Below are positions 25,141 through 46,360 of a stretch of 64,000 nt of DNA, piece after piece. The translations under genes were made by a program, and so were the position numbers. Source of the DNA: Anaeromyxobacteraceae bacterium. Lineage in GTDB: Bacteria; Myxococcota; Myxococcia; Myxococcales; Anaeromyxobacteraceae. The stretch is from contig DASRRJ010000018.1 in the NCBI GenBank assembly GCA_035656915.1, positions 49,816 through 113,815 of the forward strand, written 5' to 3'. The notes beneath the pieces were generated by a model that worked only from the letters and a program-made list of their open reading frames with translations, did not search any database and was not told the DNA's origin. Numbering within the stretch: position 1 is the first letter of the stretch; each line of letters opens with the position of its first letter.

Positions 25141-25842
25141 ATGAGCCCGCCCGCACCGGTCGTCCTCCGCGCCGAGCACCTCGGCCGCGTCGCCGACGGC
25201 AGGGCGCTGGTGGACGACGTGTCGTTCGAGGTGCGCCAGGGGGATGTGCTGGCGGTGGTCGGCCCGAGCGGCGCCGGGAAGTCCTCCCTCCTGCGGCTGC
25301 TCAACCGCCTCGACGAGCCGACCGCCGGCGCCGTGTACCTCGACGGCCAGGACGCCCGCGCGCTTCCTCCTCGCGAGCTGCGGCGGCGGGTGGGCATGGT
25401 GATGCAGACCCCCGCGCTCTTCCCCGGCACGGTCGCGGAGAACCTGAGCTTCGGGCCGCGGCAGCGCGGGGCCGCGCTCGGAGACGGGGCGCTGGCGGCG
25501 CTCCTGCGCCAGGTGGGGCTCGGCGGCTTCGCCGAGCGCGGCGTGGACCGGCTCTCCGGAGGGGAGGCGCGGCGCGTCGCCATCGCCCGGGCGGTGGCCA
25601 ACGAGCCCTCCGTGCTCCTCATGGACGAGCCGACCTCGGCCCTCGACGACGTCTCCAAGCGCGAGATCGAGGCGCTGGTGGCCGAGGTGGTGCGGGCGCG
25701 TGGGCTCACCTGCGTGGTCATCACCCACGACCTCGCCCAGGCGGCGCGCGTCGCCGGGCGGGTGCTGGTGATGGAGGCGGGCCGGGTGCGCCGCATCGGG
25801 CCGGTGGAGGAGGTGCTGCGTGCTGAAGGAACTGGTTCCTGA
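25141..25842 (+). CDS. ABC transporter ATP-binding protein (FetA/YbbL-like)
   Basis: Walker A (GPSGAGKSSLL), ABC signature (LSGGEARRVAIARA), Walker B (LLMDEPTSALD) and H-loop motifs are present. The ATG at 25141 has GGAGAG 8 nt upstream. Confidence 0.9.
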   Translation: MSPPAPVVLRAEHLGRVADGRALVDDVSFEVRQGDVLAVVGPSGAGKSSLLRLLNRLDEPTAGAVYLDGQDARALPPRELRRRVGMVMQTPALFPGTVAENLSFGPRQRGAALGDGALAALLRQVGLGGFAERGVDRLSGGEARRVAIARAVANEPSVLLMDEPTSALDDVSKREIEALVAEVVRARGLTCVVITHDLAQAARVAGRVLVMEAGRVRRIGPVEEVLRAEGTGS

Positions 25843-31951: not shown

Positions 31952-32887
31952 TCAAGCCGCGGTCGTCGCCTCCGCGAGCGACCGCCGCTCGGCGCGGAGC
32001 GCCTCGAGCGCCTCCTCCTCGCCGCAGGCTGCGAAGCGCACCGCGTCGCCGATCCTCGCCTGGGCCAGCAGGCGGAGGTCGGGGCCGATCACGGTGGCGA
32101 TCTTGGCGTAGCCGCCGGTGGTCTGCGCGTCGGCCATCATCACGATGGGCCGCCCGCTCCCGGGCACCTGGACCGCGCCGGGGCAGAGCGCGTCGGAGAC
32201 GATGTCCGGACCGCGGAGGTGGCGGATGGGCGGCCCCTCCAGCTGGTAGCCCATGCGGTCGTTCCGGTTGCCGACCTCATAGGCGGCGCCGAAGAAGGTG
32301 GCGAGCCCCTCGGAATGGAAGAGGTCGTCCTGCGGGCCAGGCAGCACGCGCAGCGTCACCGCGCCGCCGCAGGGCAGGACGAGGCCCGGGGCGAGCGCGC
32401 GAGGGCGCCGCCGCGCCCAGGGGGTCGGGCCGACCGGCAGGAGGTCGCCCGCGCGGAGCGCGCGCCCGCCGAAGCCGCCGAGCGCGCCGCGGACGTAGGT
32501 GGAGCGGCTCCCGAGCAGCGGCGCGACGTCGATGCCGCCGGCCGGCGAGAGGTAGGTCCGGCAGCCGTCGCGGGCGGCGCCGAAGGCGAGCAGGTCGCCC
32601 GCGAGCACCGGGAAGCCGGAGGCGGGAGCGACCGGCGTGCCGTTGAGCCGGGGCTGCATGTCGGCGCCGCAGACGCCCACGTAGCCGGGCCGCTCGAAGC
32701 GGAAGGTGCCGCCGAGCAGCGTCATCTCCAGCGCCGCCGCGCCGGGCGGGTTGCCGGCGAGCGCGTTCGCGAGCGCGAAGGCGAGCCGGTCCATGGCGCC
32801 CGCCACCGGGAGGCCGGAGGCGCGGTGACCCGGGCGCCCGGCGTCCTGGACCGTGGTGAGCAGGCCCGGCTTCAGCACGGCGATCAC
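31952..32887 (-). CDS. pxpC: 5-oxoprolinase subunit C (PxpC; allophanate hydrolase subunit 2 family)
   Basis: The ORF was trimmed to a GTG start that overlaps the pxpB stop (GTGA). It has the cyclophilin-like AHS2 domain (KPGLLTTVQDAGRPGHRASGLPVAGAMD). Confidence 0.8.
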   Translation of the reverse strand: MIAVLKPGLLTTVQDAGRPGHRASGLPVAGAMDRLAFALANALAGNPPGAAALEMTLLGGTFRFERPGYVGVCGADMQPRLNGTPVAPASGFPVLAGDLLAFGAARDGCRTYLSPAGGIDVAPLLGSRSTYVRGALGGFGGRALRAGDLLPVGPTPWARRRPRALAPGLVLPCGGAVTLRVLPGPQDDLFHSEGLATFFGAAYEVGNRNDRMGYQLEGPPIRHLRGPDIVSDALCPGAVQVPGSGRPIVMMADAQTTGGYAKIATVIGPDLRLLAQARIGDAVRFAACGEEEALEALRAERRSLAEATTAA

Positions 32888-33639
32888 GGCGGCGCCCCCA
32901 CGGCGTCCGGCTCGAGCTCCAGCGCCTGGTCGCCGGCCTCCGCCCGGGCCGCGAGCTTCCGGTACTCGCGCTCGGAGCACGGGCGGAAGCGCACTCGATC
33001 TCCGGCTGCCAGGAGGAACGGCGAGGGGGCGGCCGGGTCGAAGAGGCGCAGCGGCGTCCGGCCGATGAGCCGCCATCCGCCCGGGCTCTCGACGGAGTAG
33101 ATGCCGGTCTGGGCGCCGGCGATCCCGACCGAGCCGGCCGGAATCCGCGCGCGCGGCGAGTCGAGGCGCGGCGCGGCGATCCGCTCCGACATGCCGCCGA
33201 GGTAGGGAAAGCCGGGCGTGAACCCCAGCATGAACACCCGGTAGAGCGCGCCGGCGTGGAGCGCGATCACCTCCTCCTCGGAGATCCCGGCGTGCCGGGC
33301 GACGAACGCGAGGTCGGGACCGAGCTCGCCGCCGTAGGCCACCGGGACGCGGACCACCCGCCCGCCTCCAGGCGCCGCGCCGGCCCGCTCGAGCCCGGCG
33401 AGGAGCGCCTCGACGCTCGCCACCAGCCGCGCCCGCGGGAGCCGCAGCGGATCGAAGAGCAGGAGCAGGGAGCGGTAGGTCGGGACCAGCTCCTCGACGA
33501 GGTCCCCGAGCTCGCGGCGGACCGCGGCGGCGAGCAGGTGGACGCGCGCGTTCACCTGCTCGTCGATGCCGCTCCCGAGCTCCACCGCCAGCCCGCCCTC
33601 GCCGACGGTGAGGAACCTCGCCGGCGCCGGGCTCACCCG
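32884..33639 (-). CDS. pxpB: 5-oxoprolinase subunit B (PxpB; allophanate hydrolase subunit 1 family)
   Basis: The ORF was trimmed to a GTG start (VSPAPARFLTVGEGGLAVELG...). The AHS1 domain motifs RVVRVPVAYGGELGPDL and GFTPGFPYLGG are present. Confidence 0.8.
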   Translation of the reverse strand, partial: RVSPAPARFLTVGEGGLAVELGSGIDEQVNARVHLLAAAVRRELGDLVEELVPTYRSLLLLFDPLRLPRARLVASVEALLAGLERAGAAPGGGRVVRVPVAYGGELGPDLAFVARHAGISEEEVIALHAGALYRVFMLGFTPGFPYLGGMSERIAAPRLDSPRARIPAGSVGIAGAQTGIYSVESPGGWRLIGRTPLRLFDPAAPSPFLLAAGDRVRFRPCSEREYRKLAARAEAGDQALELEPDAVGAPP

Positions 33640-34412
33640 GCCGCTCCGGCCGCGGGGAAGGGCCGGACCGCGATGCCCTCGGCCGCGAGCCGCGCCCGGA
33701 TGGCGCGGATCGCCTCGACGGCGCCGGGCGTGTCGCCGTGCACGCAGACGGTGCCGGGCGACAGGGCCACCTCGCCGCCGTCGAGGGCGGCCACCGTCCC
33801 TTGCCGCACCATGCGCACCACCCGCTCCGCCATCTCCGACGGGTCCTCGAGCACCGCGCCCGGCTGCCCCCGCGGCACCAGGGTGCCGGCGCGGGTGTAG
33901 GCGCGGTCGGCGAAGGCCTCCTCCACGAACGGCTGGCCGGCGCGCCGGGCCGCCTCCACCTGCTCGGAGCGGCTGAGGCAGACGAGCACCAGCCCGGGGT
34001 CGACCGCCCGCACCGCCGCGGCGACGGCGTCGGCGACGCGCGCATCCACCGCCGCCAGGTTGTAGAGCGCGCCGTGCGGCTTCACGTGGCGCAGCGGCAC
34101 GCCCTCGGCGCGACAGAAGGCCCAGAGCGCGCCCACCTGGTAGGTGACGTCGTCGCGGATCTCCTCGGCGGACGCCGACAGCGCGCGCCGCCCGAAGCCC
34201 ACCAGGTCCGGGAAGGAGGGGTGCGCGCCCACGGCGACCCCGTGCCGCTTCGCCAGCCGGACCGTGCGCCGCATGGTGCCGGGGTCGGAGGCGTGGAAGC
34301 CGCACGCCACGTTGGCCGAGGTCACGAGGGGCATGGCCGCCTCGTCGCACCCGAGCGTCCAGGCGCCGAAGCTCTCCCCCATGTCGCAGTTCAGGTCGAC
34401 TTCCATCGGCAT
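33633..34412 (-). CDS. pxpA: 5-oxoprolinase subunit A (PxpA; LamB/YcsF family)
   Basis: MEVDLNCDMGESFG..., VACGFHASDP and HVKPHGALYN are diagnostic LamB/YcsF motifs. 259 aa. Confidence 0.9.
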   Translation of the reverse strand: MPMEVDLNCDMGESFGAWTLGCDEAAMPLVTSANVACGFHASDPGTMRRTVRLAKRHGVAVGAHPSFPDLVGFGRRALSASAEEIRDDVTYQVGALWAFCRAEGVPLRHVKPHGALYNLAAVDARVADAVAAAVRAVDPGLVLVCLSRSEQVEAARRAGQPFVEEAFADRAYTRAGTLVPRGQPGAVLEDPSEMAERVVRMVRQGTVAALDGGEVALSPGTVCVHGDTPGAVEAIRAIRARLAAEGIAVRPFPAAGAAG

Positions 34413-34416
34413 GAGA

Positions 34417-35682
34417 TCAGGCGAGCTCCCGCCCGCGCGTCTCCGGCAGCAGGTAGATCGAGGCGGCGCCGCCGGCGAAGGCCACCGCCAGGAAGGTGAG
34501 CGCGCCGCCGAGCCCGTAGGTCGTCGAGAGCGCGCCGACCACCGTGGGCGCGAGCGCGCTCAGCATGCGGCCGGCGTTGTAGCAGAAGCCCACCGCCGAG
34601 CCGCGCGCCTGGGTGGGGAAGAGCTCGGAGATGAACGCGCCGAAGGCGCTGAAGTAGCCGGAGCCGAAGAAGCCGACCAGCGGGCCGAGCAGCATGAGCG
34701 TGGTGACGTCGCGCGTGCTGCCGAAGAGCCAGACCAGCCCGGCCGAGGCGAGGAGGAAGACGGCGAAGGTGGGGCGGCGGCCGAAGCGGTCGGCGATGAA
34801 GCCGAAGCTCACGTAGCCGAGGAAGGCCCCGATCATCATGGGGATGATCCAGATGGGCGCCTTGGCGATGCCGAGCCCCGCGCCGCCCTTGGCGACCGGC
34901 ATGGCGAGGAACCCCGGCATCCAGGTGAAGAGCCCCCAGTAGGCGAACATCACGAACGCGCTGGTGAGGGTGCTGAGGAGGGTGAAGCGCAGGAGCGGCG
35001 GCCTGAAGATCTGGAAGAAGCCGAAGTCGGCCTTCTGCTCCGACGCCGCGGGCGCGCGCTTCGCGGCGAGCCAGATGGCCGGCTCCTCCACGCGGGTTCG
35101 GATCCAGAGCGTGAAGAGCGCGGGCAGGATGCCGACGAAGAACATGGCCCGCCAGCCGAACGCCGGGAGGATCGTCGCTCCGGCCGCCGCCGCCAGGATG
35201 TAGCCGATGGCCCAGCCGCTCTGCATGATGCCCACCGCCTTGCCGCGGTGCTGCGGCGGCCAGGTCTCGGACACCAGCAGAGCGCCGGAGGCCCACTCGC
35301 CGCCCATGCCCAGGCCGAGCACGGTGCGGGCCAGGGCGAGCTGGGTCAGGTTCTGCGCCAGTCCGGCGAGTCCCGAGCAGACGGAGAAGAGGAGCACCGT
35401 GATCATGAGCGCCTTCTTGCGCCCGATCCGGTCGGCCACCGCGCCGAAGAGGATCCCGCCGAACGAGGAGGCGAAGAGCGTCACCGAGACCATGAAGCCG
35501 GCCGTGGCGGGGGAGTTGCCCCACTCCTTCATGATGGTGGTGAGGCAGAACGAGTAGAGCATCACGTCGAAGGCATCGAGCGCCCAGCCCATCTGGCCAG
35601 CGACGAGGGCGTACCACTGCTTGCGGCTGATCTCCCTGTACCAGGGCGTGCCCGCGGGCGGGGCCAGCACCACTTCGCTCAT
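34417..35682 (-). CDS. MFS transporter (co-operonic with pxpABC)
   Basis: The ORF was trimmed to Met37 (ATG at 35682, CAGGAGA upstream). It has 12 TM helices. An MFS motif A (GAVADRIGRKKAL) is present. It stops 4 nt before the pxpA start. Confidence 0.8.
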   Translation of the reverse strand: MSEVVLAPPAGTPWYREISRKQWYALVAGQMGWALDAFDVMLYSFCLTTIMKEWGNSPATAGFMVSVTLFASSFGGILFGAVADRIGRKKALMITVLLFSVCSGLAGLAQNLTQLALARTVLGLGMGGEWASGALLVSETWPPQHRGKAVGIMQSGWAIGYILAAAAGATILPAFGWRAMFFVGILPALFTLWIRTRVEEPAIWLAAKRAPAASEQKADFGFFQIFRPPLLRFTLLSTLTSAFVMFAYWGLFTWMPGFLAMPVAKGGAGLGIAKAPIWIIPMMIGAFLGYVSFGFIADRFGRRPTFAVFLLASAGLVWLFGSTRDVTTLMLLGPLVGFFGSGYFSAFGAFISELFPTQARGSAVGFCYNAGRMLSALAPTVVGALSTTYGLGGALTFLAVAFAGGAASIYLLPETRGRELA

Positions 35683-35837: not shown

Positions 35838-36887
35838 ATGCTCGAGCGCAGCGACGACGGAAGGCCTTTCCGGATCCCACGCTGGAAGCTCACGCCGTGC
35901 TGCGCCCTGGGCGCTCACGCCGCCGCGGGCCCTCGCGCCGCCGTCGCACCGGCGAGCGGCAGCCCGGCCGCCGATCCGCCCGCGGCTCCCGCTGGCAGGC
36001 AGTACCCGCCGCCGCCGCCGGCGGTGAGCCCGGTCGAGGGGCTCATCGACCTGCACGTCCACAGCGCCCCCGACGTCTTCGGCCGGGCCCTCGACGACGA
36101 GGACGCCGCCCGCACCTTCCGCGACCGCGGGCTGGAGGCCTTCGCCATCAAGGGCCACACCACGGTCACCGCCGACCGCGCCTGGCTGGCGCGCCGCCAC
36201 GTGCAGGGGATCGGGGTCTACGGCGGCGTGGTCCTGAACGGCGCCGCGGGCGGCCTCAACCCCGAGGCGGTGGAGTGGATGGCCCGAGTCCAGGGCTCGT
36301 ACGGGCGGCTGGTCTGGTTCCCGACCTTCGACGCCGACCACCACGTGCGGCACTTCCGCAACGGGCCGTCGGGCATTGGCGTCCTCGACGCGGAGGGGCG
36401 GGTGCTCCCGGCGGCGCGGCGCGTGCTCGAGGCCTGCGCCCGCCAGACGCTGGTGGTCTGCACCGGGCACCTGTCGGCGGCCGAGTCGCTCGCCGTGGTG
36501 CGTGCGGCGCGGGAGGTGGGCTGCGAGCGCATCAGCGTCACCCACGCGATGATGGAGGTGCCCGGCTTCACCCTGGAGCAGCTGCGAGAGGCGGCGGGGC
36601 TCGGCGCGAAGCTGGAGCTGGCCGCGCTCGGCCTACTCATGGGCCCCGACGCCCACCTCGCCTGGATGCGCGAGTGGCGGCGCGTCACCCACGCCGACAT
36701 GGCGGCGGCGATCCGCGCCATCGGCGCGCGGCACTTCCACCTCTCCACCGACCTCGGGCAGACGGGCAACCCCGTCCCCGCCGACGGCTACGCGCTGCTC
36801 GTCGAGGGGCTCCTGGCCGAGGGGATCACGCGCGACGAGATCCGGGTGATGGGGCGCGAGGTGCCGGGGGCGCTCCTGCTCGGCTGA
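35838..36887 (+). CDS. Metal-dependent TIM-barrel hydrolase-like protein (amidohydrolase-related), N-terminal signal-like region
   Basis: The ORF was trimmed to Met42. It has IDLHVHSAPD (HxH), ...CTGHLS, ISVTHAMME and HLSTDLGQ histidine motifs that suggest an amidohydrolase-like metal site. The family is not pinned down. Confidence 0.5.
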   Translation: MLERSDDGRPFRIPRWKLTPCCALGAHAAAGPRAAVAPASGSPAADPPAAPAGRQYPPPPPAVSPVEGLIDLHVHSAPDVFGRALDDEDAARTFRDRGLEAFAIKGHTTVTADRAWLARRHVQGIGVYGGVVLNGAAGGLNPEAVEWMARVQGSYGRLVWFPTFDADHHVRHFRNGPSGIGVLDAEGRVLPAARRVLEACARQTLVVCTGHLSAAESLAVVRAAREVGCERISVTHAMMEVPGFTLEQLREAAGLGAKLELAALGLLMGPDAHLAWMREWRRVTHADMAAAIRAIGARHFHLSTDLGQTGNPVPADGYALLVEGLLAEGITRDEIRVMGREVPGALLLG

Positions 36888-37079
36888 CGGGCTGATCGCC
36901 GGCTGGCCGCCGTGGCTGGCCCGCCTTCGCCGGCCGCCCGCGTGGCCGCTTGCGCGCTGGTGATCGAGGGGACGCTCCGCCTCCCCGGCTCCCCGCTGGG
37001 TTGCGGCGCTCCGGTGGGGTTTCCATCCTCCTTGCAAGCGGGCCGTGGGGAAACCGGTCCGGGCGGGGGACGGGGGCCG

Positions 37080-37406
37080 ATGCTCGAAGCGAGGTTCGAG
37101 GAGAGGAGGGGTGCACTTCTGGTGACCCCGCTGGCGGCGTTGGACGCCGAGGCCGCGCCGGAGCTGCGGCGGGTCGTCGGGGAACGCGCCAGCGGGAGGT
37201 CGCTGGTCGTCGTCTCCCTGGCACAGGTCCGGGAGGTGGACTCCTCCGGGCTGGCGGGGCTCCTGGCGGTGCTGAAGCGGATGGCGCCCGGCGGCGAGCT
37301 GCGGCTCGCGGCCGTCCCACCTCGCACGCGCGACATCCTGATGGCGACCCATCTCGACGAGGTGTTTCCGCAATTCGAGGATGCGGCCGCCGCCCTGCGG
37401 CGATGA
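37080..37406 (+). CDS. STAS-domain anti-sigma-factor antagonist (SpoIIAA/RsbV-like)
   Basis: 108 aa. VVVSLAQVREVDSSGLAGLLAVLKR carries the conserved phosphorylatable Ser in a DSSG context. Its stop overlaps the GT2 start as ATGA. Confidence 0.8.
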   Translation: MLEARFEERRGALLVTPLAALDAEAAPELRRVVGERASGRSLVVVSLAQVREVDSSGLAGLLAVLKRMAPGGELRLAAVPPRTRDILMATHLDEVFPQFEDAAAALRR

Positions 37407-39250
37407 TCCCGACCGCTCCAGAGACCCGCGAGCGGTGGTACTTCTCGCGCTACGAGGACCGGCTCCCCGCGGAGCCGCTCCGGGTCAGCCCGGCGCGCGA
37501 CTTCGCTTTCCAGGCCCTGGCGGTGCTCGCGACGGCCCTCGGGGTGCACTACCTCGTCTGGCGCTGGGGGTGGTCGCTGAACCCGGACGCCCTGGCCTTC
37601 TCCGTGGCGGTCGCCGTCGCCGAGACGCTGGCCTTCCTGGGCGCGACCCTGTTCTTCCTGTCGGTGTGGAGGATCCAGGATCCGGTGGTCCGGCCGCCGC
37701 CCCGCACGGCGAACGAGATCCGCGAGACGCCGCTCCCGATCGACCGACCCATCCGCGTGGACGTGCTCATCGCCACCTTCAACGAGCCGGTGGAGCTGGT
37801 GCGACTGTCGGTGCAGGACGCCAAGCGGCTCGGCTACCCCCACCCGCTCACGCTCCGGATCCACGTCCTCGACGACGGGCGGCGCCCGGCGATGGCCCGC
37901 ATGGCGCGGGAGGAGGGGGTCGGCTACCTGACGCGCTCCGGAAACCAGGGGTTCAAGGCGGGGAACCTGCGGAACGGCCTCGAGCAGACCGACGGTGACC
38001 TGGTCGTGATCTGCGACGCGGACACCCGCCCGCTGCCCGGCCTGCTCGCCGACACGCTCGGCCACTTCCGCGACCCGAGCGTCGCCTGGGTGCAGACGCC
38101 GCAGTGGTTCTACGACGTCGATCCGGGCACCCCGCTGCCGGAGTGGCTGGCGCGCGCGGCGCGGCTGGGGCGGCCGGGGAGGCTGATCGGGCGGATGCTC
38201 GAGGCGGTGATCGGGCCGGTGGCGGTGGGCGCCGATCCGCTCGCCGCCGATCCGGCCGCCTTCTACGAGATCGTCCAGCGGGGCCGGAACTGGTGCAACG
38301 CCTCCTTCTGCTGCGGTGCCGGGAGCATCCACCGGCGCGAGGCGGTGATGGAGGCCGCGCTCAAGGACTTCGGGCGCCGGGTCACCGAGTCGGTGCGCCC
38401 CTGGACGGCGAAGGTGCGCGACCCGGAGCTCCGCGAGGCGCTGAGGACGGCCTTGGTCGCCCAGGCAGCGCGCCACGCGGAGCTCACCCCCTACCGCTTC
38501 CACGTCTCCGAGGACATCTACACGAGCATCGCGCTCCACGCCGATCCCGAGCGCCGCTGGCGCTCCGTCTACCACCCGCGGGCGCTCACCCGCATGCTCT
38601 CGCCCCAGGATCTCCCTGCCTGGACGGTGCAGCGCTTCAAGTACGCCGCCGGGACGCTCGACATCGGCTGGCGCGACAACCCGCTGCGGCTCCCGGGGCT
38701 GACTCCCTGGCAGAAGCTCATGTACGGGGCCACCATCTACGCCTACCTGGCGCCGCTCTGGACCATCCCGCTGCTGTTCTCGCCGCTCGCCTACTTCTTC
38801 ATCGGGGTGACGCCGGTGCGCGCCTTCGACGCCGCCTTCTTCGGAAACCTCATCCCCTTCCTGCTGGCGAGCCGGCTCGCGTTCGCCGTCCGCGCCTGGG
38901 GCGTGCCCACCTGGCGCGCCGAGCAGTTCCACCTCGCCTCGTGCTGGCTGAACCTGCGGGCGCTGGGGCACGTGCTGGCCGGCCGCCCGCTGCGCTTCGA
39001 GGTCACGCCCAAATCGGGCGCGCGCCGGCGCTCGCTCTCGCTCGTGGCGCCGCACCTGGCGTTCATGGCCGCGGCGGTGGTCGGGATCGCCTACCGCGGC
39101 GCGCGGCTGGCCGCGGACTCGGGCCCGCCCCACGCGACCGCCTTCGCCTCCAACGTCTTCTGGGCCGCGCACACCAGCCTGTGCTTCCTGCCCTTCATCC
39201 TCGCCGCGCTGGCGGTCTCGCTCCGGCGCGAGGGGGGAGGAGCGCGATGA
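37403..39250 (+). CDS. Family-2 processive glycosyltransferase, cellulose-synthase (BcsA/CrdS)-like, membrane-embedded
   Basis: 615 aa. Two N-terminal TM helices are followed by GT-A motifs (DVLIATFNEP, HVLDDG, ICDADT = D, D, D) and a Q(R)xRW-like QRFKYAAG. There are 6 C-terminal TM helices. No PilZ domain is present. Confidence 0.8.
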   Translation: MIPTAPETRERWYFSRYEDRLPAEPLRVSPARDFAFQALAVLATALGVHYLVWRWGWSLNPDALAFSVAVAVAETLAFLGATLFFLSVWRIQDPVVRPPPRTANEIRETPLPIDRPIRVDVLIATFNEPVELVRLSVQDAKRLGYPHPLTLRIHVLDDGRRPAMARMAREEGVGYLTRSGNQGFKAGNLRNGLEQTDGDLVVICDADTRPLPGLLADTLGHFRDPSVAWVQTPQWFYDVDPGTPLPEWLARAARLGRPGRLIGRMLEAVIGPVAVGADPLAADPAAFYEIVQRGRNWCNASFCCGAGSIHRREAVMEAALKDFGRRVTESVRPWTAKVRDPELREALRTALVAQAARHAELTPYRFHVSEDIYTSIALHADPERRWRSVYHPRALTRMLSPQDLPAWTVQRFKYAAGTLDIGWRDNPLRLPGLTPWQKLMYGATIYAYLAPLWTIPLLFSPLAYFFIGVTPVRAFDAAFFGNLIPFLLASRLAFAVRAWGVPTWRAEQFHLASCWLNLRALGHVLAGRPLRFEVTPKSGARRRSLSLVAPHLAFMAAAVVGIAYRGARLAADSGPPHATAFASNVFWAAHTSLCFLPFILAALAVSLRREGGGAR

Positions 39251-40590
39251 GCTTCCTGCGCGGGCTGCTGACGGCGCGCTCCCACCTCGCCTTCCTGGTG
39301 GGGCTGACCGCCGCCGTGGCGGTGGTCCGGATCACCTCGCGGCTGGGCCGCGCCGGGGAGGCGACGACGCTCCGCGAGCTGGTGGCGCCGCTCCCGCGGT
39401 CGCTGCCGCTGCGGGCTCCGGGGCGCGTCGGCGCCCGCGAGCGATCGCTGGCGCGGGCCGCCTTCGCCTACCTGGAGCGCAACACCGATGAGGCCACCGG
39501 GCTGGCGCGCTCGGTGGCCGGGTATCCCTCCACCACCATGTGGGAGGTGGGCTCGCAGCTCATGGCACTGCTCGCCGCGGAGGATCTCGACCTGGTCTCG
39601 CGCGACGGGGCGCGGCGCCGCGCCGCCCGGGTGGTCTCCGCGCTCGCCTCGCTGCCGCTCTGCGACGGGAGGCTGCCGAACAAGGCCTACGACACGCGGA
39701 CCCTCGCGATGGTGGATTACGGCAACCGGCCCGCCCCCGAGGGGATCGGCTGGTCCGCGCTCGATCTGGGCCGCGTCCTCTCCGCGCTCGGCCTGGTGAT
39801 GCGCCGCTACCCTGAGCTCGCGCCTCAGATCGAGCGGGCGACCGCGAGCTGGGACCTGCAGGCGCTGAGCGACGGTGACGTGCTCCGGGGCGCCACGCGC
39901 CGGCCCACCGGCGAGCTGGAGCGCCATCAGGAGGGGCGGCTGGGGTACGAGCAGTACGCCGCGCGGGCGCTCCTGCCCTGGGGGGTCGCCGCCTCGAGCG
40001 CGCTCGACTACCGCTCCCACCTCGCCGCGGCCGAGATCTACCGAATGGCCGTGCCGGTGGACGACCGCCGGCCGGAGGATCACGGCGGGACGCACGCCGC
40101 GGTCCTCTCCGAGCCGTGGATCCTCGCCGGGATCGAGCAGGGGTTCGACGCGGTCAGCGAGGCGCTGGCGCGGCGGGTGCTCGAGGTGCAGGCGCGCCGG
40201 GCCGACGGGACCGGGCGGATCACCGCCTTCTCGGAGGACGCCATCGACCGGCCGCCCGGCTTCGCCTACTCGGCGATCCTGAACGGCGGTCGCTCCTGGA
40301 CCGCCTTCGCGGCCGACGGCTCCCCCGCGCCCGCCACCTTTTCGACCAAGGCCGCGCTCGGCTGGGCCGCGCTCTTCGGCGGCCCCTACTCCGACCGGCT
40401 GCGGGAGGCCGCGCTGGCGCTGGTGGCGCCGGGCGCCGGCGCCTGGGCCGGGCGCTACGACGCCGGCGGCGAGGTGAACCGGGTGCTCTCGCTCAACACC
40501 AACGCGGTGATCCTGGAGGCGCTCTCGTACCAGCTGCGAGGTCCGTTCTCGCGTCGCCCGGTCCGGCTGCCGCGGCAGGTGGCGCGATGA
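39247..40590 (+). CDS. Conserved large-domain protein (DUF3131-like by recollection), paralog A, N-terminal TM anchor
   Basis: Its start overlaps the GT2 stop as ATGA. 447 aa. It shares the motifs GYPSTT/SVW(E/D)(V/L)GS, LPNKAYDT, G(I/W)SALDLGR, EGRLGYEQYAA and NTNAVILE with the downstream paralog. The DUF3131 label is from memory. Confidence 0.6.
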   Translation: MSFLRGLLTARSHLAFLVGLTAAVAVVRITSRLGRAGEATTLRELVAPLPRSLPLRAPGRVGARERSLARAAFAYLERNTDEATGLARSVAGYPSTTMWEVGSQLMALLAAEDLDLVSRDGARRRAARVVSALASLPLCDGRLPNKAYDTRTLAMVDYGNRPAPEGIGWSALDLGRVLSALGLVMRRYPELAPQIERATASWDLQALSDGDVLRGATRRPTGELERHQEGRLGYEQYAARALLPWGVAASSALDYRSHLAAAEIYRMAVPVDDRRPEDHGGTHAAVLSEPWILAGIEQGFDAVSEALARRVLEVQARRADGTGRITAFSEDAIDRPPGFAYSAILNGGRSWTAFAADGSPAPATFSTKAALGWAALFGGPYSDRLREAALALVAPGAGAWAGRYDAGGEVNRVLSLNTNAVILEALSYQLRGPFSRRPVRLPRQVAR

Positions 40591-42569
40591 GGGCGCTGGG
40601 CCTGTCCGCGCTCCTCCTGGCCGCGCGGGTGGCCGGCGCCCAGCAGCAGTGCCCCGCGCCGGCCCCCCCGCCCTCGCCCGAGGCGGCCTCCGTCGCGCGG
40701 GTGGCCTGGACCTACTTCGAGCGCAACTATCGCCCGGAGACCGGCATGGTGGACTCGGTCGAGGGCTACCCGAGCACCTCGGTGTGGGACCTCGGCTCCT
40801 CGATCCTGGCAACGGTCGCGGCGCGCCGGCTCGGCGTGCTCTCCGAGCCGGACTTCGACCGGCGCGTGCGAGCGCTGCTGGGGACGCTCTCGCGGCTGCC
40901 GCTCTTCGAGGGCGAGCTCCCGAACAAGGCCTACGACACCACCACCGGAGGGATGACCGACTACGCGAACAGGCCCTCGCCCGGCGGGATCGGCGTGTCG
41001 GCGCTCGACCTCGGGCGGCTCGCGGCCGCGCTGCGCGCGCTCGCCTGCGCGGAGCCGGCGCTCCGGCCGGAGGTGGAGCGGGTGCTGGCGCGCTGGCGCT
41101 GGTGCCGGCTGCTCGGCGACGGAGAGCTGCACGGGATGCTGCGGGGCGGCGCGGGCGCCGTGCAGGTGGTGCAGGAGGGACGGCTCGGCTACGAGCAGTA
41201 CGCGGCCGAGGGGCTGGCCGGGCTCGGGCTCGACGTCGCTCGCGCGCGCCGCTACGACCGCCACTCCGCCGAGGAGGTGATCCTGGGCGTGCCGGTGCGG
41301 CGCGACGCGCGCGACGCCCGCCGCTTCGGTGCGGTGGACGCGCTCGTGACCGACCCCTGGGTCCTCTCCGCGCTCGAGTACGGCCCCGACGCGGCCCGCG
41401 CGCCGCTGCTGCGGCGGCTCTTCGAGGTCCAGAAGCGGCGCTGGCAGCGCACCGGCGTGGTCACCGCCGCGAGCGAGGACCACGTCGACCGGGCGCCCTG
41501 GTTCGTCTACGACGCCGTCTGGGCGGACGGCGGCGCCTGGAAGGCGGTGACGCCGGAGGGGCGCGAGGTCCCCGAGCTGCGCGGGCTCTCGGTGAAGGCC
41601 GCCTTCGCCCTGGCGGCGCTCTTCCCGATCGACCCCTATGCGCAGGTCCTGCTGCAGGCGGCCGGCCGCGCCTACGATCCGGGGCGGGGGTTCTTCGCGG
41701 GGGTCTACGAGCGCGGCGGCCTGAACCGCTCGGTGAACGCCAACACCAACGCGGTCATCCTGGAGGTGCTGCTCTTCCAGCGCTCCGGCCCCTTGCTGGG
41801 CTGTGGGAGCTGCGCGCAGGAGCCGGCCGGGGCGGCGCTGCGCCTTCCGGCGGGCGCGCGGAGCTGCCCAGCGGTCGCCCGGACGAGCGCGCCGGGCGGC
41901 GGCGCCGGGCTAGAGAGCGCAGCCGGGCTCGGGCCCAAGCCGCCGCTCCTCGCGCCGGTGAGCACCGGCACCCGCTTCCTGCGCCTCGACGGCACCTTCT
42001 TCCTGGGCTACCGCGGCCTCGACGGTCCGACCGCCGGCGGGGTCGCGACCGCCTGGCTCGGCCGCGCCATCTTCCTGCGGCTCGGAGGCGAGGGCACCCC
42101 CAACTCCACCTACGGCCACTCCCGGTTCCTGTGGGGCTTCGGCTACGACGACTGGCGGGACAACACCTTCTTCCTCCACGTGGACAACTGGGGGCCCATC
42201 CGGCTCGAGGACAGCCTCTCGCGCTCGGCCGAGGTGAACGCGGGCTACCGCCTCCCGACCCTCTGCGCGAAGAGCTGGCTCTGCGCCTCCCCGGTCGCGC
42301 AGGTCACCACGCCGTTCGTGGGCGGGCCGTACCTGAGCGCTCGCGTGAACGTCACCTTCTGGAAGGACTGGTTCCTGATGGGCGGGCTCGGCTGGACCGT
42401 GCCCGGCGTGCTGCCCGGTCCGCTCGGCACGCCGAGCTGGCGGGTCATGTACGGGCTCGGCCGCTGGAGCTGGAAGCCCGGGAGCGTCTACGTCACCTAT
42501 TACGACTGGGGGCCCGATTCGCACAGCGGCAACGGGATCCTCGCCATCGGCATCAACTGGGCGTTCTAG
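40587..42569 (+). CDS. Conserved large-domain protein (DUF3131-like), paralog B, fused to a C-terminal putative outer-membrane beta-barrel domain
   Basis: ATGA overlap again. A signal peptide is present (MRALGLSALLLAARVAGAQQ). The region 30-430 is paralogous to the preceding gene. The C-terminal roughly 200 aa are rich in alternating aromatic/Gly beta-strand patterns and end in ...GINWAF, a terminal Phe typical of OM beta-barrels. Confidence 0.6.
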   Translation: MRALGLSALLLAARVAGAQQQCPAPAPPPSPEAASVARVAWTYFERNYRPETGMVDSVEGYPSTSVWDLGSSILATVAARRLGVLSEPDFDRRVRALLGTLSRLPLFEGELPNKAYDTTTGGMTDYANRPSPGGIGVSALDLGRLAAALRALACAEPALRPEVERVLARWRWCRLLGDGELHGMLRGGAGAVQVVQEGRLGYEQYAAEGLAGLGLDVARARRYDRHSAEEVILGVPVRRDARDARRFGAVDALVTDPWVLSALEYGPDAARAPLLRRLFEVQKRRWQRTGVVTAASEDHVDRAPWFVYDAVWADGGAWKAVTPEGREVPELRGLSVKAAFALAALFPIDPYAQVLLQAAGRAYDPGRGFFAGVYERGGLNRSVNANTNAVILEVLLFQRSGPLLGCGSCAQEPAGAALRLPAGARSCPAVARTSAPGGGAGLESAAGLGPKPPLLAPVSTGTRFLRLDGTFFLGYRGLDGPTAGGVATAWLGRAIFLRLGGEGTPNSTYGHSRFLWGFGYDDWRDNTFFLHVDNWGPIRLEDSLSRSAEVNAGYRLPTLCAKSWLCASPVAQVTTPFVGGPYLSARVNVTFWKDWFLMGGLGWTVPGVLPGPLGTPSWRVMYGLGRWSWKPGSVYVTYYDWGPDSHSGNGILAIGINWAF

Positions 42570-42594: not shown

Positions 42595-43497
42595 ATGAGA
42601 GGGCGTGGCGGGTTCCTGCTGGCGGCGTCGGCGGCGCTGGCGATGGGCTGCGGCCTCATGCCGCCGGAGAAGCCCGGGACGACCCAGCAGTCGACGCCGA
42701 CGCCTCCGCCGGTGCCCGGGCCCACCCAGACGCCGTCGCCCGCTCCGTCCTCGGGGCTGCCGTCCCCGCTGCCCGGCTACCACCTGCTCTGGCACGACGA
42801 GTTCGACGGCGCGGGCCTCGACCCGACGAAGTGGACCGCCTCGACCGGCCCTCGACGCGACGCGACGCTCACCACCGACGCGATCTCGGTCCACGACGGG
42901 CTGCTCACCGTCACCACCTACACCGACGGCGGGAAGCACTACACCGGCTTCCTCACCACCGGCAGCGCCTTCCAGCCGACCTTCGGGTACTTCGAGGCGC
43001 GGATCCGCTTCAACGACGCGCCCGGGGAGTGGTGCGCCTTCTGGCTCCTCTCGCCGACGAACGGGGTCCCGCTCGGAGATCCGGCCACGGCGGGCGCCGA
43101 GGTGGACATCGTCGAGCACCGTGTCACCGACCCGAAGGGCTGGGACGCGCTGCGCGACCTCGTCAAGGAGGAGGTGCACTGGGACGGGTACGGCGCCGAC
43201 CGGAAGGACTCGCCGGAGCACACCGTCCCGCTCGCCGGCGGCGGTCCCGTGCAAGGCGCCTGGCACACCTACTCGGTGCTCTGGACGGACGCGGGCTACT
43301 GGTTCTACGCGGACGGATCGCTGCTCTGGAACTACGACCAGGGGCTCTCGAAGCGGGGCGAGCAGGTGCTGCTCACCTGCGAGGTCGAGGACGGCACCTG
43401 GGCGGGCTACGTCCCGGCCGGCGGCTACGGCTCGCTGGCCAGCAGCGCCACCCACATGGACGTGGACTGGGTGCGGGTCTGGGCGCCGGGGCCGTAG
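42595..43497 (+). CDS. Glycoside hydrolase family 16 lipoprotein (endo-beta-1,3/1,3-1,4-glucanase-like)
   Basis: GGGGAGGGG SD. The signal peptide has a lipobox (LAMGCG) and a Pro/Thr-rich linker. The catalytic GH16 motif EVDIVEH (ExDxxE) and a jelly-roll-type sequence are present. Confidence 0.8.
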   Translation: MRGRGGFLLAASAALAMGCGLMPPEKPGTTQQSTPTPPPVPGPTQTPSPAPSSGLPSPLPGYHLLWHDEFDGAGLDPTKWTASTGPRRDATLTTDAISVHDGLLTVTTYTDGGKHYTGFLTTGSAFQPTFGYFEARIRFNDAPGEWCAFWLLSPTNGVPLGDPATAGAEVDIVEHRVTDPKGWDALRDLVKEEVHWDGYGADRKDSPEHTVPLAGGGPVQGAWHTYSVLWTDAGYWFYADGSLLWNYDQGLSKRGEQVLLTCEVEDGTWAGYVPAGGYGSLASSATHMDVDWVRVWAPGP

Positions 43498-46360
43498 TCC
43501 TCGGAGCCGGCCGCCTACTCCTCCGGCGCGCCAGCGCCGCGGCCGCGAGGAGCCCTGCCAGCGAGAGCGCGTCCCCTCCACCGCTCGAGGCGCAGCCCCC
43601 CCGACCGCCGGCAGCGGCGGAGGCCGGCGTGGGCGATCCTCCAGCCGTCGAGGGCGCGGTGGCCCCCCGGATGACGCCCGAGAGCATGAAGTCGCGCGAC
43701 GAGCTCCCCACGAACACCGGGGTCTCGCACGCCGGCGATGTCCAGGCGTGCGCCGCCGGGTCCCAGCGCTCGAACGCCTCCGGCGCCAGCGCGACGGTCA
43801 CGCGCCGGCTGGCGCCCGGATCGAGCGCCACCTTGGAGAACCCCGCCAGCCGGTGCGGCACCGGGTCGGCCTCCCCGGGGCAGGGTCCCACGTAGACCTG
43901 CGCCACCTCGGCGCCAGCGCGGCCGCCGGTGTTGGCGAGCGTGAACGAGACCTGGGCCGTGCGGCGGCCGGCGGCGTCCACCGTCGCCGGCGCGACCTCG
44001 AGGCCGGAGTAGCCGAAGGTGGTGTAGGAGAGGCCGTAGCCGAAGGGGAAGAGCGGCGCGATCCCCTTCGCGTCGTACCAGCGGTATCCCATGAGCAGCC
44101 CCTCCGACCAGGCGATCACCGGGCCGATCTGGTCCTGGGTGGGCGCGGGCTGCGCGCCGACCGGCGTCTGGTCGAGCGAGCGCGGGAAGGTGAGCGGGAG
44201 CTTGCCCGAGGGGTTCACGTCGCCGAAGAGCACCCGGGCGACGACGTCCCCCTGCCGCTGCCCCGGGTACCAGGCCTGCACCACCGCCGAGACGGCGGGG
44301 AGCCAGGGCATGCTGGTGCCCTGACCGGTGGTGAGCACCACGACCGTGCGCGGGTTGGCCGCCGCCACCGCGGCGATGAGCGCGTCCTGCTCGGACGGGA
44401 GCGAGAGGTCCAGCCGGTCGCGCTCCTCGGTCCCGTAATCCCGCGCGACCACCACCGCCACGTCAGAGGCGGCCGCCAGCGCCACCGCCTCGCGCGTGGT
44501 GGAGAGCACCGTGCCGGCCGGCATCTGCCACCCCAGCTTCAGATCCCCGCCGCGATCGGTCGCCACCCCGATGCTGGGGGCGTCGGCGACGTAGTCCACC
44601 CGAAGGTCGTGCTTCGTGCCGGCGGCGAGCTGCACGGTGGCGGACCTGGAGTCGAGCTCGTGCGAGCCGGAGTGGTCGATGACGAGCGCGCCGTCGAGCC
44701 ACACCCAGCCCTGGCCGCGGTCGGTGAGCGTGAAGGTGTAGGTGCCGGTCGCCGGCGCGGTGAGGGTGCCGTTCCAGCGGGCCGAGATCTTCTGCAGGGC
44801 GAAGCTCTCCGGGAGCTGCGGCTCGGAGGAGGCGTCGACGCTCGGGTAGTCGAAGAAGCCGAGCGAGACCGCCGCCTCGTGGTCCACCCGGATCACCTCC
44901 GCCGGGCCGGCGAAGCTCGGGTTGAGCCAGTACTGCGCCCGCAGGCCGCGGGTCCCGTCGTCGAACCCCTCCGGCGTGAGCACCGAGGAGGGGATGGCCG
45001 GCGGTCCCGGCAGGAGGTGCGCCGGCGAGACCGGGTCGCCACCGGGCGCGAACCTCACGTCCACCCCGGGTCCGGCGCGCTGGCGCAGGCCGTCGAGCGG
45101 AGTCACCGAGGAGGTCGGCTCCACCCGCGCCGCGCCGCCGCCCTGGGCCGCGGCGGTGTCGGCGTCGGCGCCGATGACCGCGATCGAGCGCAGCGCGCCG
45201 GCGGAGAGCGGGAGGAGCCCGTCGCGGTTCTGGAGCAGCACCACCCCCTGCTCGGCGATTTGCTCCGAGCGGTCGGAGTCGTCCGCCTCGGCGAGCGGCC
45301 CCGGTTGCACCGGCTGGTCCATGAGGCCGAGGCGGAACATGGAGCGCAGGATCCGGCGCGCCTTGTCGTCCACCACGTCGCGCGCCACCTCCCCGCGCTG
45401 GACCGCGCCGAGGAGCGAGTGGCCGAAATACTTCTCGAAGGCCAGCTCCTGGTCGAGGCCGGCCGTGGCCGCCAGCACCGTGCCGTGGATCGAGGCCCAG
45501 TCGCTGAGGACGTAGCCCTGGAAGCCCAGCTCGCCCTTGAGGACGTCGGTGAGGAGGTGGCGGTCCTCGCAGGCGAACGCGCCGTTCACGCGGTTGAAGC
45601 CGCACATCACGCTCCCCACCTGGGCGTCGGCGACCGCCGCCTGGTAGGGCCGGAGGTAGAGCTCTCGCAGGGCGCGCTCGTCCAGCTCGGCGTCCACCGT
45701 GAAGCGGTCGGTCTCCTGGCCGTAGGCGACGTAGTGCTTGGCGTCGGCGATCACCGGGTGCTTCTGGATGGCCTGGATGAACGGGGCGGCGAGGCGCGCC
45801 GCCAGGAGCGGGTCCTCGCCGAAGCCCTCGAAGGTGCGGCCGGCGAGCGGGTCGCGCGCGAGGTCCAGGGTGGGCCCGAGCAGCACGTTGTGCCCGGTGA
45901 GGAAGGCCTCGGCACCGAGCACGTCCCCCTGCTCGGAGGCCGCGGTGGGGTCGAAGCTCGCGGCGAGCGCGATGGGCGCGGGGAGCTGGGTGGCCCGACC
46001 GCCGTTCACCCGCTGGTAGGGGATGCGGATGCCCGCCGGGCCGTCGGTCATGGTCAGGGCCGGGATGCCGAGCCGGGCGATGGGGGCGTTGTAGTAGCCG
46101 TAGAGCAGGCAGCGCTCGCCCGTCGCGAGATCGATCTCCTCCTCGAGCGCCATGGCCCCGAGCAGCGCCTCGGCGCGCGCATCCGGCGGCTGGCTGGAGT
46201 CGGTCCAGGGCCGGCTCGCGGGCGGCCCCTGCTCCGAGCCGAGCGTCGGGCCAGGGCAGTACGGCGGTGGCGCGGCGCCGGCGTGGAGCGCGACCGAGGC
46301 GATCACTGCCGCGAGCAGCGCGAGCGCCCCTCGGTCTGCCTGAAACCCGGCGTGGAGCAT
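43373..46360 (-). CDS. Glycoside hydrolase family 3 beta-glucosidase with inserted PA14 domain and MYXO-CTERM-like C-terminal sorting region
   Basis: The ORF was trimmed to Met91 (signal peptide MLHAGFQADRGALALLAAVIASVALHA). The GH3 nucleophile motif GFQGYVLSDWASIHG is present. The PA14 region reads YWLNPSFAGPAEV...TGTYTFTLTDRGQGWVWLDGALVIDHSG. The C-terminal ...GGCASSGGGDALSLAGLLAAAALARRRSRRP resembles MYXO-CTERM. The ORF runs roughly 43 aa beyond it and overlaps the GH16 3' end by 125 nt. Confidence 0.8.
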   Translation of the reverse strand: MLHAGFQADRGALALLAAVIASVALHAGAAPPPYCPGPTLGSEQGPPASRPWTDSSQPPDARAEALLGAMALEEEIDLATGERCLLYGYYNAPIARLGIPALTMTDGPAGIRIPYQRVNGGRATQLPAPIALAASFDPTAASEQGDVLGAEAFLTGHNVLLGPTLDLARDPLAGRTFEGFGEDPLLAARLAAPFIQAIQKHPVIADAKHYVAYGQETDRFTVDAELDERALRELYLRPYQAAVADAQVGSVMCGFNRVNGAFACEDRHLLTDVLKGELGFQGYVLSDWASIHGTVLAATAGLDQELAFEKYFGHSLLGAVQRGEVARDVVDDKARRILRSMFRLGLMDQPVQPGPLAEADDSDRSEQIAEQGVVLLQNRDGLLPLSAGALRSIAVIGADADTAAAQGGGAARVEPTSSVTPLDGLRQRAGPGVDVRFAPGGDPVSPAHLLPGPPAIPSSVLTPEGFDDGTRGLRAQYWLNPSFAGPAEVIRVDHEAAVSLGFFDYPSVDASSEPQLPESFALQKISARWNGTLTAPATGTYTFTLTDRGQGWVWLDGALVIDHSGSHELDSRSATVQLAAGTKHDLRVDYVADAPSIGVATDRGGDLKLGWQMPAGTVLSTTREAVALAAASDVAVVVARDYGTEERDRLDLSLPSEQDALIAAVAAANPRTVVVLTTGQGTSMPWLPAVSAVVQAWYPGQRQGDVVARVLFGDVNPSGKLPLTFPRSLDQTPVGAQPAPTQDQIGPVIAWSEGLLMGYRWYDAKGIAPLFPFGYGLSYTTFGYSGLEVAPATVDAAGRRTAQVSFTLANTGGRAGAEVAQVYVGPCPGEADPVPHRLAGFSKVALDPGASRRVTVALAPEAFERWDPAAHAWTSPACETPVFVGSSSRDFMLSGVIRGATAPSTAGGSPTPASAAAGGRGGCASSGGGDALSLAGLLAAAALARRRSRRPAPRTTAPAPRPAPSPRPCGWRCWPASRSRRPGRSPPRCRPRPRR

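Follow-up and report, generated by a model that had tools for sequence, protein, structure and literature searches.

A stand-alone STAS protein coupled to a BcsA-like synthase in Anaeromyxobacteraceae: a possible survivor of a lost phosphorylation switch

The DNA considered here is a 64,000-nucleotide (nt) stretch of an Anaeromyxobacteraceae bacterium (contig DASRRJ010000018.1, positions 49,816 to 113,815 of the forward strand), the whole of which we call the window. At 37080-37406 on the plus strand it encodes a 108-amino-acid (aa) STAS-domain protein, which stands first in a glycan operon and whose stop codon overlaps the start of a gene for a BcsA-like membrane synthase of glycosyltransferase family 2 (GT2). 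Comparison with related loci suggests that the Anaeromyxobacteraceae lineage once had a phosphorylation switch, has lost it, and retains this STAS protein as its remnant. Gene neighborhoods strongly support an ancestral system that would have been a partner-switching module without a sigma factor, dedicated to the glucan cluster. In the present lineage, the STAS protein may be a partner of the synthase machinery that needs no phosphorylation and is permanently “on,” a reading to which we give about an even chance.

The evidence comes in the first place from relatives. Scanning the GT2 alignment against one genome per species gave 80 loci, in which GT2 identity is 47-71% and a DUF3131 gene comes next in nearly all; linkage was counted in the 57 loci that have at least 4 kb on both sides of GT2. 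The hidden Markov model (HMM) for STAS was built from the orthologues of the window protein, and those for kinase and phosphatase from cluster-linked proteins. Because a simple gene caller erred in several high-GC loci (for example, by placing an antisense open reading frame (ORF) over the gene of glycoside hydrolase family 16, GH16), the conclusions on loci rest on six-frame HMM matches together with independent gene calls.

An orthologue of the cluster STAS protein lies near GT2 in 64 of the 80 loci (STAS HMM, E 1e-14 to 1e-52). These loci are found in Myxococcota (Hyalangium, Kofleriaceae, and Haliangiales), in Alpha-, Beta-, and Gammaproteobacteria (Paracoccus, Loktanella, Ramlibacter, Noviherbaspirillum, Thiothrix, Ferrimonas, Franconibacter, and Phytobacter), and also in Desulfoluna, Calditrichaceae, Kapaibacteria, and Bacteroidota. 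Outside Anaeromyxobacteraceae, the usual flanks of the STAS gene encode a 140-180-aa RsbW-type HATPase_c_2 protein (Pfam E ~1e-24 in sampled loci) and a ~395-aa phosphatase with Response_reg and SpoIIE domains (E ~1e-39, likewise in sampled loci). Among the 57 well-flanked loci, STAS is present in 50, a match to the RsbW-like kinase HMM in 43, and the SpoIIE phosphatase in 38, with all three together in 37.

The same picture is given by Pfam, which we ran on 112 neighbor proteins from 12 kinase-containing loci. The commonest families were Response_reg (11), HATPase_c_2 (11), STAS (11), and SpoIIE (10), followed by NTP_transferase, OpgC, glycogen phosphorylase, GH2, and GH9; neither Sigma70 nor GGDEF is among the 25 commonest neighbor families of these loci, counting families with at least two members. 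The sequence-only reading of this DNA had proposed a partner-switching input that controls polysaccharide synthesis directly rather than through a sigma factor. For the wider family this proposal stands, with kinase and phosphatase embedded in the cluster and no recurrent Sigma70, but it does not seem to carry over to the lineage of the window, where the loci examined hold neither kinase nor phosphatase within 8-10 kb and the phosphorylation motif has decayed.

In three of the loci (L015, L021, and L022 in our numbering, at ~130-5700; Kofleriaceae and Haliangiales), each cluster has two STAS-kinase pairs. One STAS protein is the window orthologue and is encoded beside a DUF3131 gene; the other is a more distant paralogue (E ~1e-14).

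The order phosphatase-STAS-kinase-GT2 occurs in a number of loci, several of which have the STAS stop overlapping the kinase start, and deletion of the kinase gene from this order would yield the STAS-GT2 arrangement of the window. Intermediate forms exist. Hyalangium has genes for a receiver (REC)-PP2C protein, STAS, and GT2 in that order. In locus L011, the operon is STAS-GT2-DUF3131, and a gene located 2.4 kb downstream of it (L011 12173-13720) encodes a 516-aa REC-SpoIIE-HATPase_c_2 fusion that joins a receiver, a SpoIIE phosphatase, and an RsbW-like kinase. As a database query this fusion gave 1789 matches, REC-SpoIIE being ubiquitous, and there is no Anaeromyxobacter name among the best 120 of the 1789.

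STAS is kept without the kinase in eight well-flanked loci. The reverse, a match to the kinase HMM without a detected STAS, was seen only in L054 (an ORF of ~400 codons, by HMM match only) and in L070, where the upstream sequence is cut off. STAS is the most persistent component of the switch in the GT2-DUF3131 clusters.

Within the lineage of the window, the STAS gene stands directly before GT2 in all 12 Anaeromyxobacter-type loci. The NTGA overlap between the two genes is kept in 10 of them (L001-L008, L010, and L024), with gaps of 3 and 5 nt in the other two. Independent gene calls for the complete genome of Anaeromyxobacter paludicola and for JGI contigs give the order STAS(109)-GT2-DUF3131-DUF3131-GH16-GH3 with 4-nt overlaps. 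The upstream neighbors in A. paludicola and the JGI contigs are unrelated to each other, and since upstream genes differ between relatives, the conserved unit starts exactly at the STAS gene. The adjacency of STAS and GT2, on which the sequence-only reading was built, is therefore a conserved feature and not a peculiarity of this contig. We looked 8-10 kb around GT2 in 15 Anaeromyxobacteraceae loci, namely L081-L083 and the 12 from the genome scan, and neither HATPase_c_2 nor SpoIIE turned up in any of them.

The window itself gives the same result. A Pfam scan of ~55 called ORFs spanning all 64 kb returned no HATPase_c_2 (RsbW-type kinase) and no SpoIIE/PP2C, and neither protein emerged when the six-frame translation of the window was searched with the HMMs for the cluster-linked kinases and phosphatases; the sole weak match of this search (E 0.006) is an ordinary HisKA/HATPase_c histidine kinase at 23316-25796. 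The two methods agree, and bear out the earlier statement that both kinds of protein are missing from this stretch. The other regulators of the window are 14-30 kb from the STAS gene and comprise a Hanks-type kinase with a Sigma70_r2 protein, an extracytoplasmic function (ECF) sigma factor, two PilZ proteins, and a RIO kinase. At 7633-11171 on the minus strand, the gene for the Sigma70_r2-only protein overlaps that for the Hanks-type kinase (8226-11171) by 4 nt; the kinase has 981 aa, TPR repeats, and a weak CsgG-like match.

The kinase-facing side of the STAS protein has changed along with its neighborhood. Its D54-S55-S56-G57 motif (37239-37250 on the plus strand, with S55 at 37242-37244) aligns by phmmer with the DSSG of SpoIIAA (1th8_B). 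The phospho-acceptor of SpoIIAA we take to be Ser58, the first Ser of DSSG, to which S55 is equivalent; in the structural model described below, S55 is the N-terminus of helix 2 (residues 55-67). All STAS sequences were aligned to one HMM and compared as two groups, 51 from loci with a kinase match and 57 database orthologues of the Anaeromyxobacteraceae type.

The kinase-linked group has the motif F-[MIVL]-D-S-S-G-L-G, with Ser55 in 51 of 51 sequences, F52 in 50, and G59 in 49. The corresponding motif in the Anaeromyxobacteraceae-type group is x-V-D-[C/A/P/S]-S-G-L-A: F52 is found in 0 of 57, G59 has become Ala in 56, and position 55 is Cys in 30, Ala in 18, Pro in 5, Ser in 3, and Gly in 1. 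Expressed as conservation in the kinase-linked group and then in the clade, F52 goes from 98% to 0%, S55 from 100% to 6%, G59 from 96% to 1%, R91 from 98% to 26%, and M92 from 85% to 1%. R20 and F87 are likewise kinase-linked invariants that the clade has lost. Not everything has moved, as D54, S56, and L58 are invariant in both groups and K66 is conserved in both.

The window protein itself carries E52, A59, H91, and L92 at kinase-linked invariant positions. In a neighbor-joining tree the bearers of Ser55 (the window protein, A. paludicola, and two others) are scattered within a Cys/Ala clade. The nearest relative of the window protein, which is 91% identical, has Pro at position 55, and this position switches among S, P, A, C, and G even between close relatives. 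We read the DSSG of the window as one of the states permitted at a relaxed small-residue site rather than as a conserved phospho-acceptor, and the kinase-facing residues, including the acceptor Ser, appear to have lost constraint in Anaeromyxobacteraceae.

The mechanism that we propose would run as follows. The Anaeromyxobacteraceae locus lacks kinase and phosphatase genes, and GT2 takes the slot directly after the STAS stop that is the kinase slot in a number of other clusters. By termination-reinitiation, the STAS protein would be made in fixed proportion to GT2, and it would do constitutively what unphosphorylated STAS does conditionally in the ancestral system. We infer that it would bind GT2 or the GT2 complex and that the effect of this binding would be activating. 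Classical partner switches have the kinase as effector, with the STAS protein serving only to antagonize it. STAS has been kept after loss of the kinase, although an antagonist role would have made it dispensable, which argues that STAS itself is the output, a role that has been proposed for SypA and demonstrated by genetics for All4160. The alternative offered in the sequence-only reading, that the STAS protein binds the synthase itself, would accordingly seem to fit this lineage better than a phospho-switch.

A broader claim, which we make tentatively and with rather less than even confidence, concerns the widespread family of PilZ-less BcsA-like glucan synthase clusters. In this family, contact with the synthase and its activation may fall to the STAS protein rather than to the RsbW-like kinase. 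On this view, Anaeromyxobacteraceae would represent a naturally occurring “locked-on” mutant that lost kinase and phosphatase by deletion and allowed the phospho-Ser to drift to Cys, Ala, or Pro, while STAS stayed on as an obligatory non-catalytic subunit of the synthase, co-translated with it in stoichiometric amounts.

Several observations weigh against the reading of a permanently “on” partner, and some of them favor a phospho-switch that is still live. In such a switch, S55 would be phosphorylated by a trans-encoded RsbW- or Hanks-type kinase and dephosphorylated by a PP2C phosphatase, gating glucan synthesis post-translationally. The window protein does carry Ser55, at the SpoIIAA phospho-acceptor position, as does that of A. 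paludicola. Partners are found at a distance elsewhere: besides the L011 fusion, locus L018 retains an intact F-x-D-S-S-G with no kinase within 8 kb, so trans-acting kinases are possible in the family. The window encodes the Hanks-type and RIO kinases already mentioned, and the search covers 64 kb of a 280-kb contig, which leaves room for a kinase encoded in trans.

The other points of this kind concern the synthase and the statistics. The GT2-DUF3131 cluster occurs without any STAS in six full-flank loci (three Edwardsiella, Serratia, Vibrio, and one Myxococcales metagenome-assembled genome), so the synthase family can do without STAS. GT2 sequences from kinase-containing, STAS-only, and STAS-less clusters were compared for a STAS docking signature, and no discriminating column or indel was seen; the only difference among the groups is ten clade-fixed conservative substitutions. 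The analysis as a whole yielded no physical or co-evolutionary evidence of STAS-GT2 contact. In addition, the median dN/dS (nonsynonymous over synonymous rate) across 13 genomes is 0.57 for STAS and 0.46 for GT2, values that are inflated and unreliable in absolute terms because a GC content of ~0.9-0.95 at third codon positions (GC3) limits dS, and of which only the comparison between the two genes is used here.

On balance we regard a live phospho-switch as unlikely. Position 55 is Cys, Ala, Pro, or Gly in 54 of the 57 clade orthologues and Pro in the closest of them, the window protein has replaced the kinase-linked invariants (E52, A59, H91, and L92), and HATPase_c_2 and SpoIIE were found neither in the window nor within 8-10 kb at the 15 Anaeromyxobacteraceae loci. 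The conserved phosphorylatable Ser of the sequence-only reading was thus half right. The DSSG is there and aligns with that of SpoIIAA, but beyond the window protein Ser occurs in only 3 of 57 clade orthologues, which are not phylogenetically independent of one another.

It is also worth considering that the STAS protein is an effector of something other than GT2, such as the cytoplasmic N-terminus of the first DUF3131 protein of the operon, an enzyme of nucleotide-sugar supply, or a small ligand, with only an indirect effect on glucan. The ATGA coupling extends to the DUF3131 genes of the operon, so it does not single out GT2. In a number of kinase clusters, genes for NTP_transferase, GH2-like, and DUF3131 proteins separate STAS from GT2. 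In addition, Foldseek matches the STAS model to the YchM STAS-ACP complex (3ny7) and to MlaB (template modeling (TM) score 0.62-0.64), which are STAS proteins with non-kinase partners. However, in STAS-only loci the STAS gene always abuts GT2, and the cyanobacterial STAS-glycosyltransferase fusions All4160, All2285, and XssP point to the transferase, though one of a different class (bioRxiv 10.64898/2026.04.08.717354). Another target therefore strikes us as rather improbable.

The STAS protein could, at the other extreme, have no function at all, the frame being retained solely because its translation, as a leader, brings ribosomes to the start of GT2. Kinase, phosphatase, and phospho-Ser have been lost, STAS-less GT2 clusters exist, and dN in the 13 genomes is higher for STAS (0.39) than for GT2 (0.27). 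The protein is nevertheless constrained as a protein. A26 and S56 are invariant and many positions are conserved at 90% or more, among them residues that the clade has gained and holds nearly invariant (T16, R30, R40, S46, P70-G-G-E-L-R75, P97, and D101; clade-specific residues are 93-99% conserved). A length of 107-109 aa is kept in ~60 orthologues, whose alignment yields a very confident STAS fold. Constraint on STAS falls just a little short of that on the synthase, and the length, fold, and coupling of STAS have all been kept. A vestigial ORF is, to us, the least probable of the explanations weighed here, and the reading of a permanently “on” partner takes this conservation into account.

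The identity of the protein is clear. The 108-aa translation, MLEARFEERRGALLVTPLAALDAEAAPELRRVVGERASGRSLVVVSLAQVREVDSSGLAGLLAVLKRMAPGGELRLAAVPPRTRDILMATHLDEVFPQFEDAAAALRR, matches Pfam STAS (PF01740) over residues 6-103 with E 1.3e-12 and 47.9 bits (cut-off 22.6), and its second Pfam match is STAS_2. The base composition of the window is 74% GC, and the frame and the ATG at 37080 are backed by GC at the second and third codon positions (GC2 0.50, GC3 0.88); codon-position GC in the 168 nt upstream in the same frame (36912-37079) is not coding-like. By sequence, the closest matches in PDB are TM1442 (6.7e-5) and SpoIIAA 1th8_B (1.3e-4). An AlphaFold2 (AF2) model, for which the input alignment held 62 sequences, has the alternating beta-strand/alpha-helix fold with a predicted local distance difference test (pLDDT) score of 95.6, and Foldseek gives TM scores of 0.82-0.88 to SpoIIAA, TM1442, and a Haliangium antagonist (0.88 being SpoIIAA 1th8_B) and of 0.81 to RsbV 6m36_B. 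The description as a SpoIIAA/RsbV-type STAS protein is thereby confirmed.

The orthologue group comprises ~60 proteins of 107-109 aa with 53-91% identity, the named members being Anaeromyxobacter; below it, phmmer drops sharply to unrelated Streptomyces STAS proteins at 1e-4 to 1e-7. The six-frame profile search found a single STAS in the whole window.

Such a fold, with SpoIIAA, RsbV, and TM1442 as best structural matches, invites the conclusion that the protein is a canonical anti-anti-sigma factor, an antagonist of an RsbW-type anti-sigma factor encoded elsewhere, with adjacency to GT2 reflecting co-expression only. Some sources do label orthologues “anti-sigma B factor antagonist,” and the window holds two ECF-type sigma genes (7633-8229 and 55754-56395). 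These genes are 18-30 kb from STAS, however, and we know of no ECF-type sigma factor that is a target of RsbW-type anti-sigma kinases. The protein scores 45.8 bits against the NCBIfam anti-sigma-antagonist model TIGR00377, below the curated cut-off of 53.45, and 23.4 against the SpoIIAA equivalog where 114.75 is required. No sigma-70 family recurs in the 12 kinase-containing clusters, the phospho-site is not conserved, and the STAS-GT2 linkage is conserved across phyla. We consider this explanation very unlikely, and “anti-sigma factor antagonist” is probably the wrong annotation label for the STAS proteins of these clusters.

The presumed partner in our preferred reading, the GT2 protein, is encoded at 37403-39250 on the plus strand and has 615 aa. 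It is recognized by Pfam Glycos_transf_2 and matches PDB BcsA by sequence with E 1e-30; its AF2 model (pLDDT 89) is closest to BcsA (TM scores of 0.65-0.71), with plant CesA and CslF6 as the next matches. On the NCBIfam CelA equivalog it scores 201 bits against a cut-off of 699, so it is not a cellulose-synthase equivalog. It has an invariant QRFKY at the position of the QxxRW of BcsA, and neither the Pfam scan nor the AF2 model shows a PilZ domain in it. The PilZ domain is the activator of BcsA, and a GT2 protein that lacks this domain makes another activator plausible.

Relative to BcsA, the cytosolic glycosyltransferase domain has two conserved insertions at ~residues 242-282 and 328-367, and the model has helices at 245-270 and 312-358. 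Tandem stand-alone PilZ proteins of 179 and 158 aa are encoded at 19895-20942, 16 kb upstream of this PilZ-less synthase.

The remaining features of the operon can be described in order. The intergenic leader (36888-37079, plus strand) probably contains the operon promoter and the ribosome-binding site, as judged from its non-coding codon-position GC and from the variable upstream genes of relatives. A G-rich putative ribosome-binding site, GGGGGACGGGGG, lies 3-14 nt before the STAS ATG. The leader has no Rfam match, riboswitches included, and a scan of the operon, leader included, found neither a sigma-70 promoter consensus nor an intrinsic terminator consensus, all of which is unsurprising at 74% GC.

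The STAS stop TGA (37404-37406) overlaps the GT2 ATG (37403-37405) as ATGA at 37403-37406 on the plus strand, an arrangement that implies translational coupling. The position of the STAS gene at the head of a glycan operon and this overlap are read directly from the sequence and are as first described. We also asked whether STAS and GT2 might be fused, or the ATGA might reflect a frameshift artefact, and rejected both ideas, as both frames have proper codon bias and the two ORFs are kept separate in the orthologues. ATGA overlaps are also found at the GT2/DUF3131 (39247) and DUF3131/DUF3131 (40587) junctions.

DUF3131 protein A (39247-40590, plus strand; Pfam DUF3131 E 6e-118) has an N-terminal membrane anchor, judged from its N-terminal sequence. 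DUF3131 protein B (40587-42569, plus strand; E 7e-128) starts with a signal peptide and is extended at its C-terminus by ~250 aa. The C-terminus of protein B (...GILAIGINWAF) resembles the end of an outer-membrane beta-barrel, and this protein may be the pore for glucan export. A PDB sequence search with DUF3131 found no relative.

The next gene starts 25 nt beyond the second DUF3131 gene and encodes a GH16 beta-glucanase-like lipoprotein (42595-43497, plus strand; Pfam Glyco_hydro_16 E 8e-14; lipobox LAMGC), in a position that is conserved in relatives. Convergent to it, at 43373-46360 on the minus strand, is a gene for a GH3 beta-glucosidase with PA14 (Pfam GH3 N and C domains, PA14, and an Fn3-like domain). 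The GH3 gene is the same neighbor in L081-L083 and is co-oriented within the operon in some relatives. Together, GT2, GH16, GH3, and DUF3131 point to a beta-glucan as the likely product of the operon.

The 3' ends of the GH16 and GH3 genes overlap by 125 nt (43373-43497) in the window and are 85 nt apart in A. paludicola. The window GH3 protein is ~40 aa longer than that of A. paludicola; either its C-terminus is extended or the sequence may contain an error.

Upstream, a DUF6282 gene (35838-36887, plus strand) directly adjoins the leader. Beyond it, at 31952-35682 on the minus strand, lies a 5-oxoprolinase-like set (CT_A_B, CT_C_D, and LamB/YcsF) together with a gene for an MFS transporter. 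Relatives have other genes upstream.

Three further loci in the window may be of interest to others. A 1007-aa fusion (11200-14223, minus strand) begins with DHODB-type Fe-S, Fer4_20, and Pyr_redox_2 domains, a part that resembles the glutamate-synthase small subunit, and ends in a rubrerythrin/ferritin-like domain. The protein encoded at 52554-54263 is likewise a fusion, with a HAD-type hydrolase (Hydrolase_3/S6PP) at the N-terminus and then a P-loop AAA/HerA-like domain. At 62596-63436, a BrnT toxin domain follows an N-terminal extension of ~100 aa, and an 89-aa ORF with no family match overlaps its end; the pair may be an atypical toxin-antitoxin system.

Textbooks present partner-switching modules as regulators of sigma factors, and only very recently has evidence appeared that such modules can work directly on polysaccharide enzymes (the 2026 preprint on All4160 of Anabaena). 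Here, a stand-alone STAS protein is paired with a processive BcsA-like synthase across many phyla. The lineages that have kept only STAS are a natural experiment on which component of the switch is the output and what it contacts, and they reduce this to a question of two proteins. They also point to control of a cellulose-synthase-like enzyme that is independent of cyclic di-GMP (c-di-GMP). By gene content, the same kind of cluster is found on accessory islands of Klebsiella and Salmonella.

How, then, does this system compare with those already known? MlaB is the STAS subunit of the MlaFEDB lipid transporter, stoichiometric and bound to the cytoplasmic ABC ATPase. To our knowledge, no dedicated kinase regulates it. 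A stand-alone STAS protein as accessory subunit of a membrane machine is also our working model, and the likeness is one of fold only. MlaB differs in having an ABC ATPase as partner and in lacking any evolutionary connection with partner switching.

Closer in product is the BgrU/V/W switch of Sinorhizobium meliloti, whose STAS protein is BgrV. This switch governs a BcsA-like mixed-linkage beta-glucan synthase (Baena et al. 2019, cited in PMC13438883 and in the Anabaena preprint). Its effect is exerted by way of the diguanylate cyclase BgrR and of c-di-GMP, which the synthase binds, with BgrV as a repressor. Here too, in the wider family, a partner switch with a STAS protein would govern what appears to be a BcsA-like beta-glucan synthase, but no GGDEF recurs in the GT2-DUF3131 clusters and the window GT2 has no PilZ.

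Accessory block 3b of Klebsiella pneumoniae and SGI3 of Salmonella Mississippi appear in the literature as lists of cluster genes without function (PMC12974863, PMC3401170). The lists give a cellulose synthase, DUF3131 or a beta-galactosidase-like protein, OpgC, a sensor kinase, an anti-sigma factor or serine phosphatase, and an antagonist (PMC12974863, PMC3401170). Judged by gene list alone, this is the same kind of cluster as L045, L047, and L061. The window version differs in that it has no OpgC, kinase, phosphatase, or sensor kinase and has GH16 and GH3.

In the syp locus of Vibrio fischeri, SypA is a single-domain STAS protein that is active when unphosphorylated, with S56A functional; it promotes polysaccharide via a non-sigma partner that is still unidentified, and its K67 and R68 are essential for output (PMC4517449). 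V. parahaemolyticus (SypA-VP) and V. vulnificus (RbdA) retain the STAS protein without a sypE homologue (PMC4517449). In both syp and the window, STAS is the first gene of the polysaccharide locus, and a register counted from the phospho-Ser, not aligned, pairs SypA K67/R68 with K66/R67 in the protein of the window. SypE resembles the L011 fusion in combining kinase, receiver, and PP2C in one protein, although the order differs (kinase-REC-PP2C in SypE, REC-PP2C-kinase in L011). However, syp is a Wzx/Wzy-type locus with multiple glycosyltransferases, as against the BcsA-like synthase and DUF3131 here, and the kinase-less Vibrio orthologues keep the Ser, whereas the Anaeromyxobacteraceae clade has mostly replaced it.

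The HenR/All4160/Alr3423 module of Anabaena PCC 7120 uses the same three regulatory domain types that occur in the GT2-DUF3131 clusters. An RsbW-type kinase phosphorylates the STAS domain of All4160, and a receiver-SpoIIE phosphatase makes the domain active again; this domain directly controls a polysaccharide enzyme, not a sigma factor, and a non-phosphorylatable variant is active (bioRxiv 10.64898/2026.04.08.717354). In Anabaena, STAS is fused to a transferase of a different class, whereas here it is separate, coupled to a BcsA-like synthase, and found in a lineage without kinase, phosphatase, or conserved Ser. As both SypA-S56A and the non-phosphorylatable All4160 variant are active, there is precedent for a STAS protein that is “on” independently of phosphorylation.

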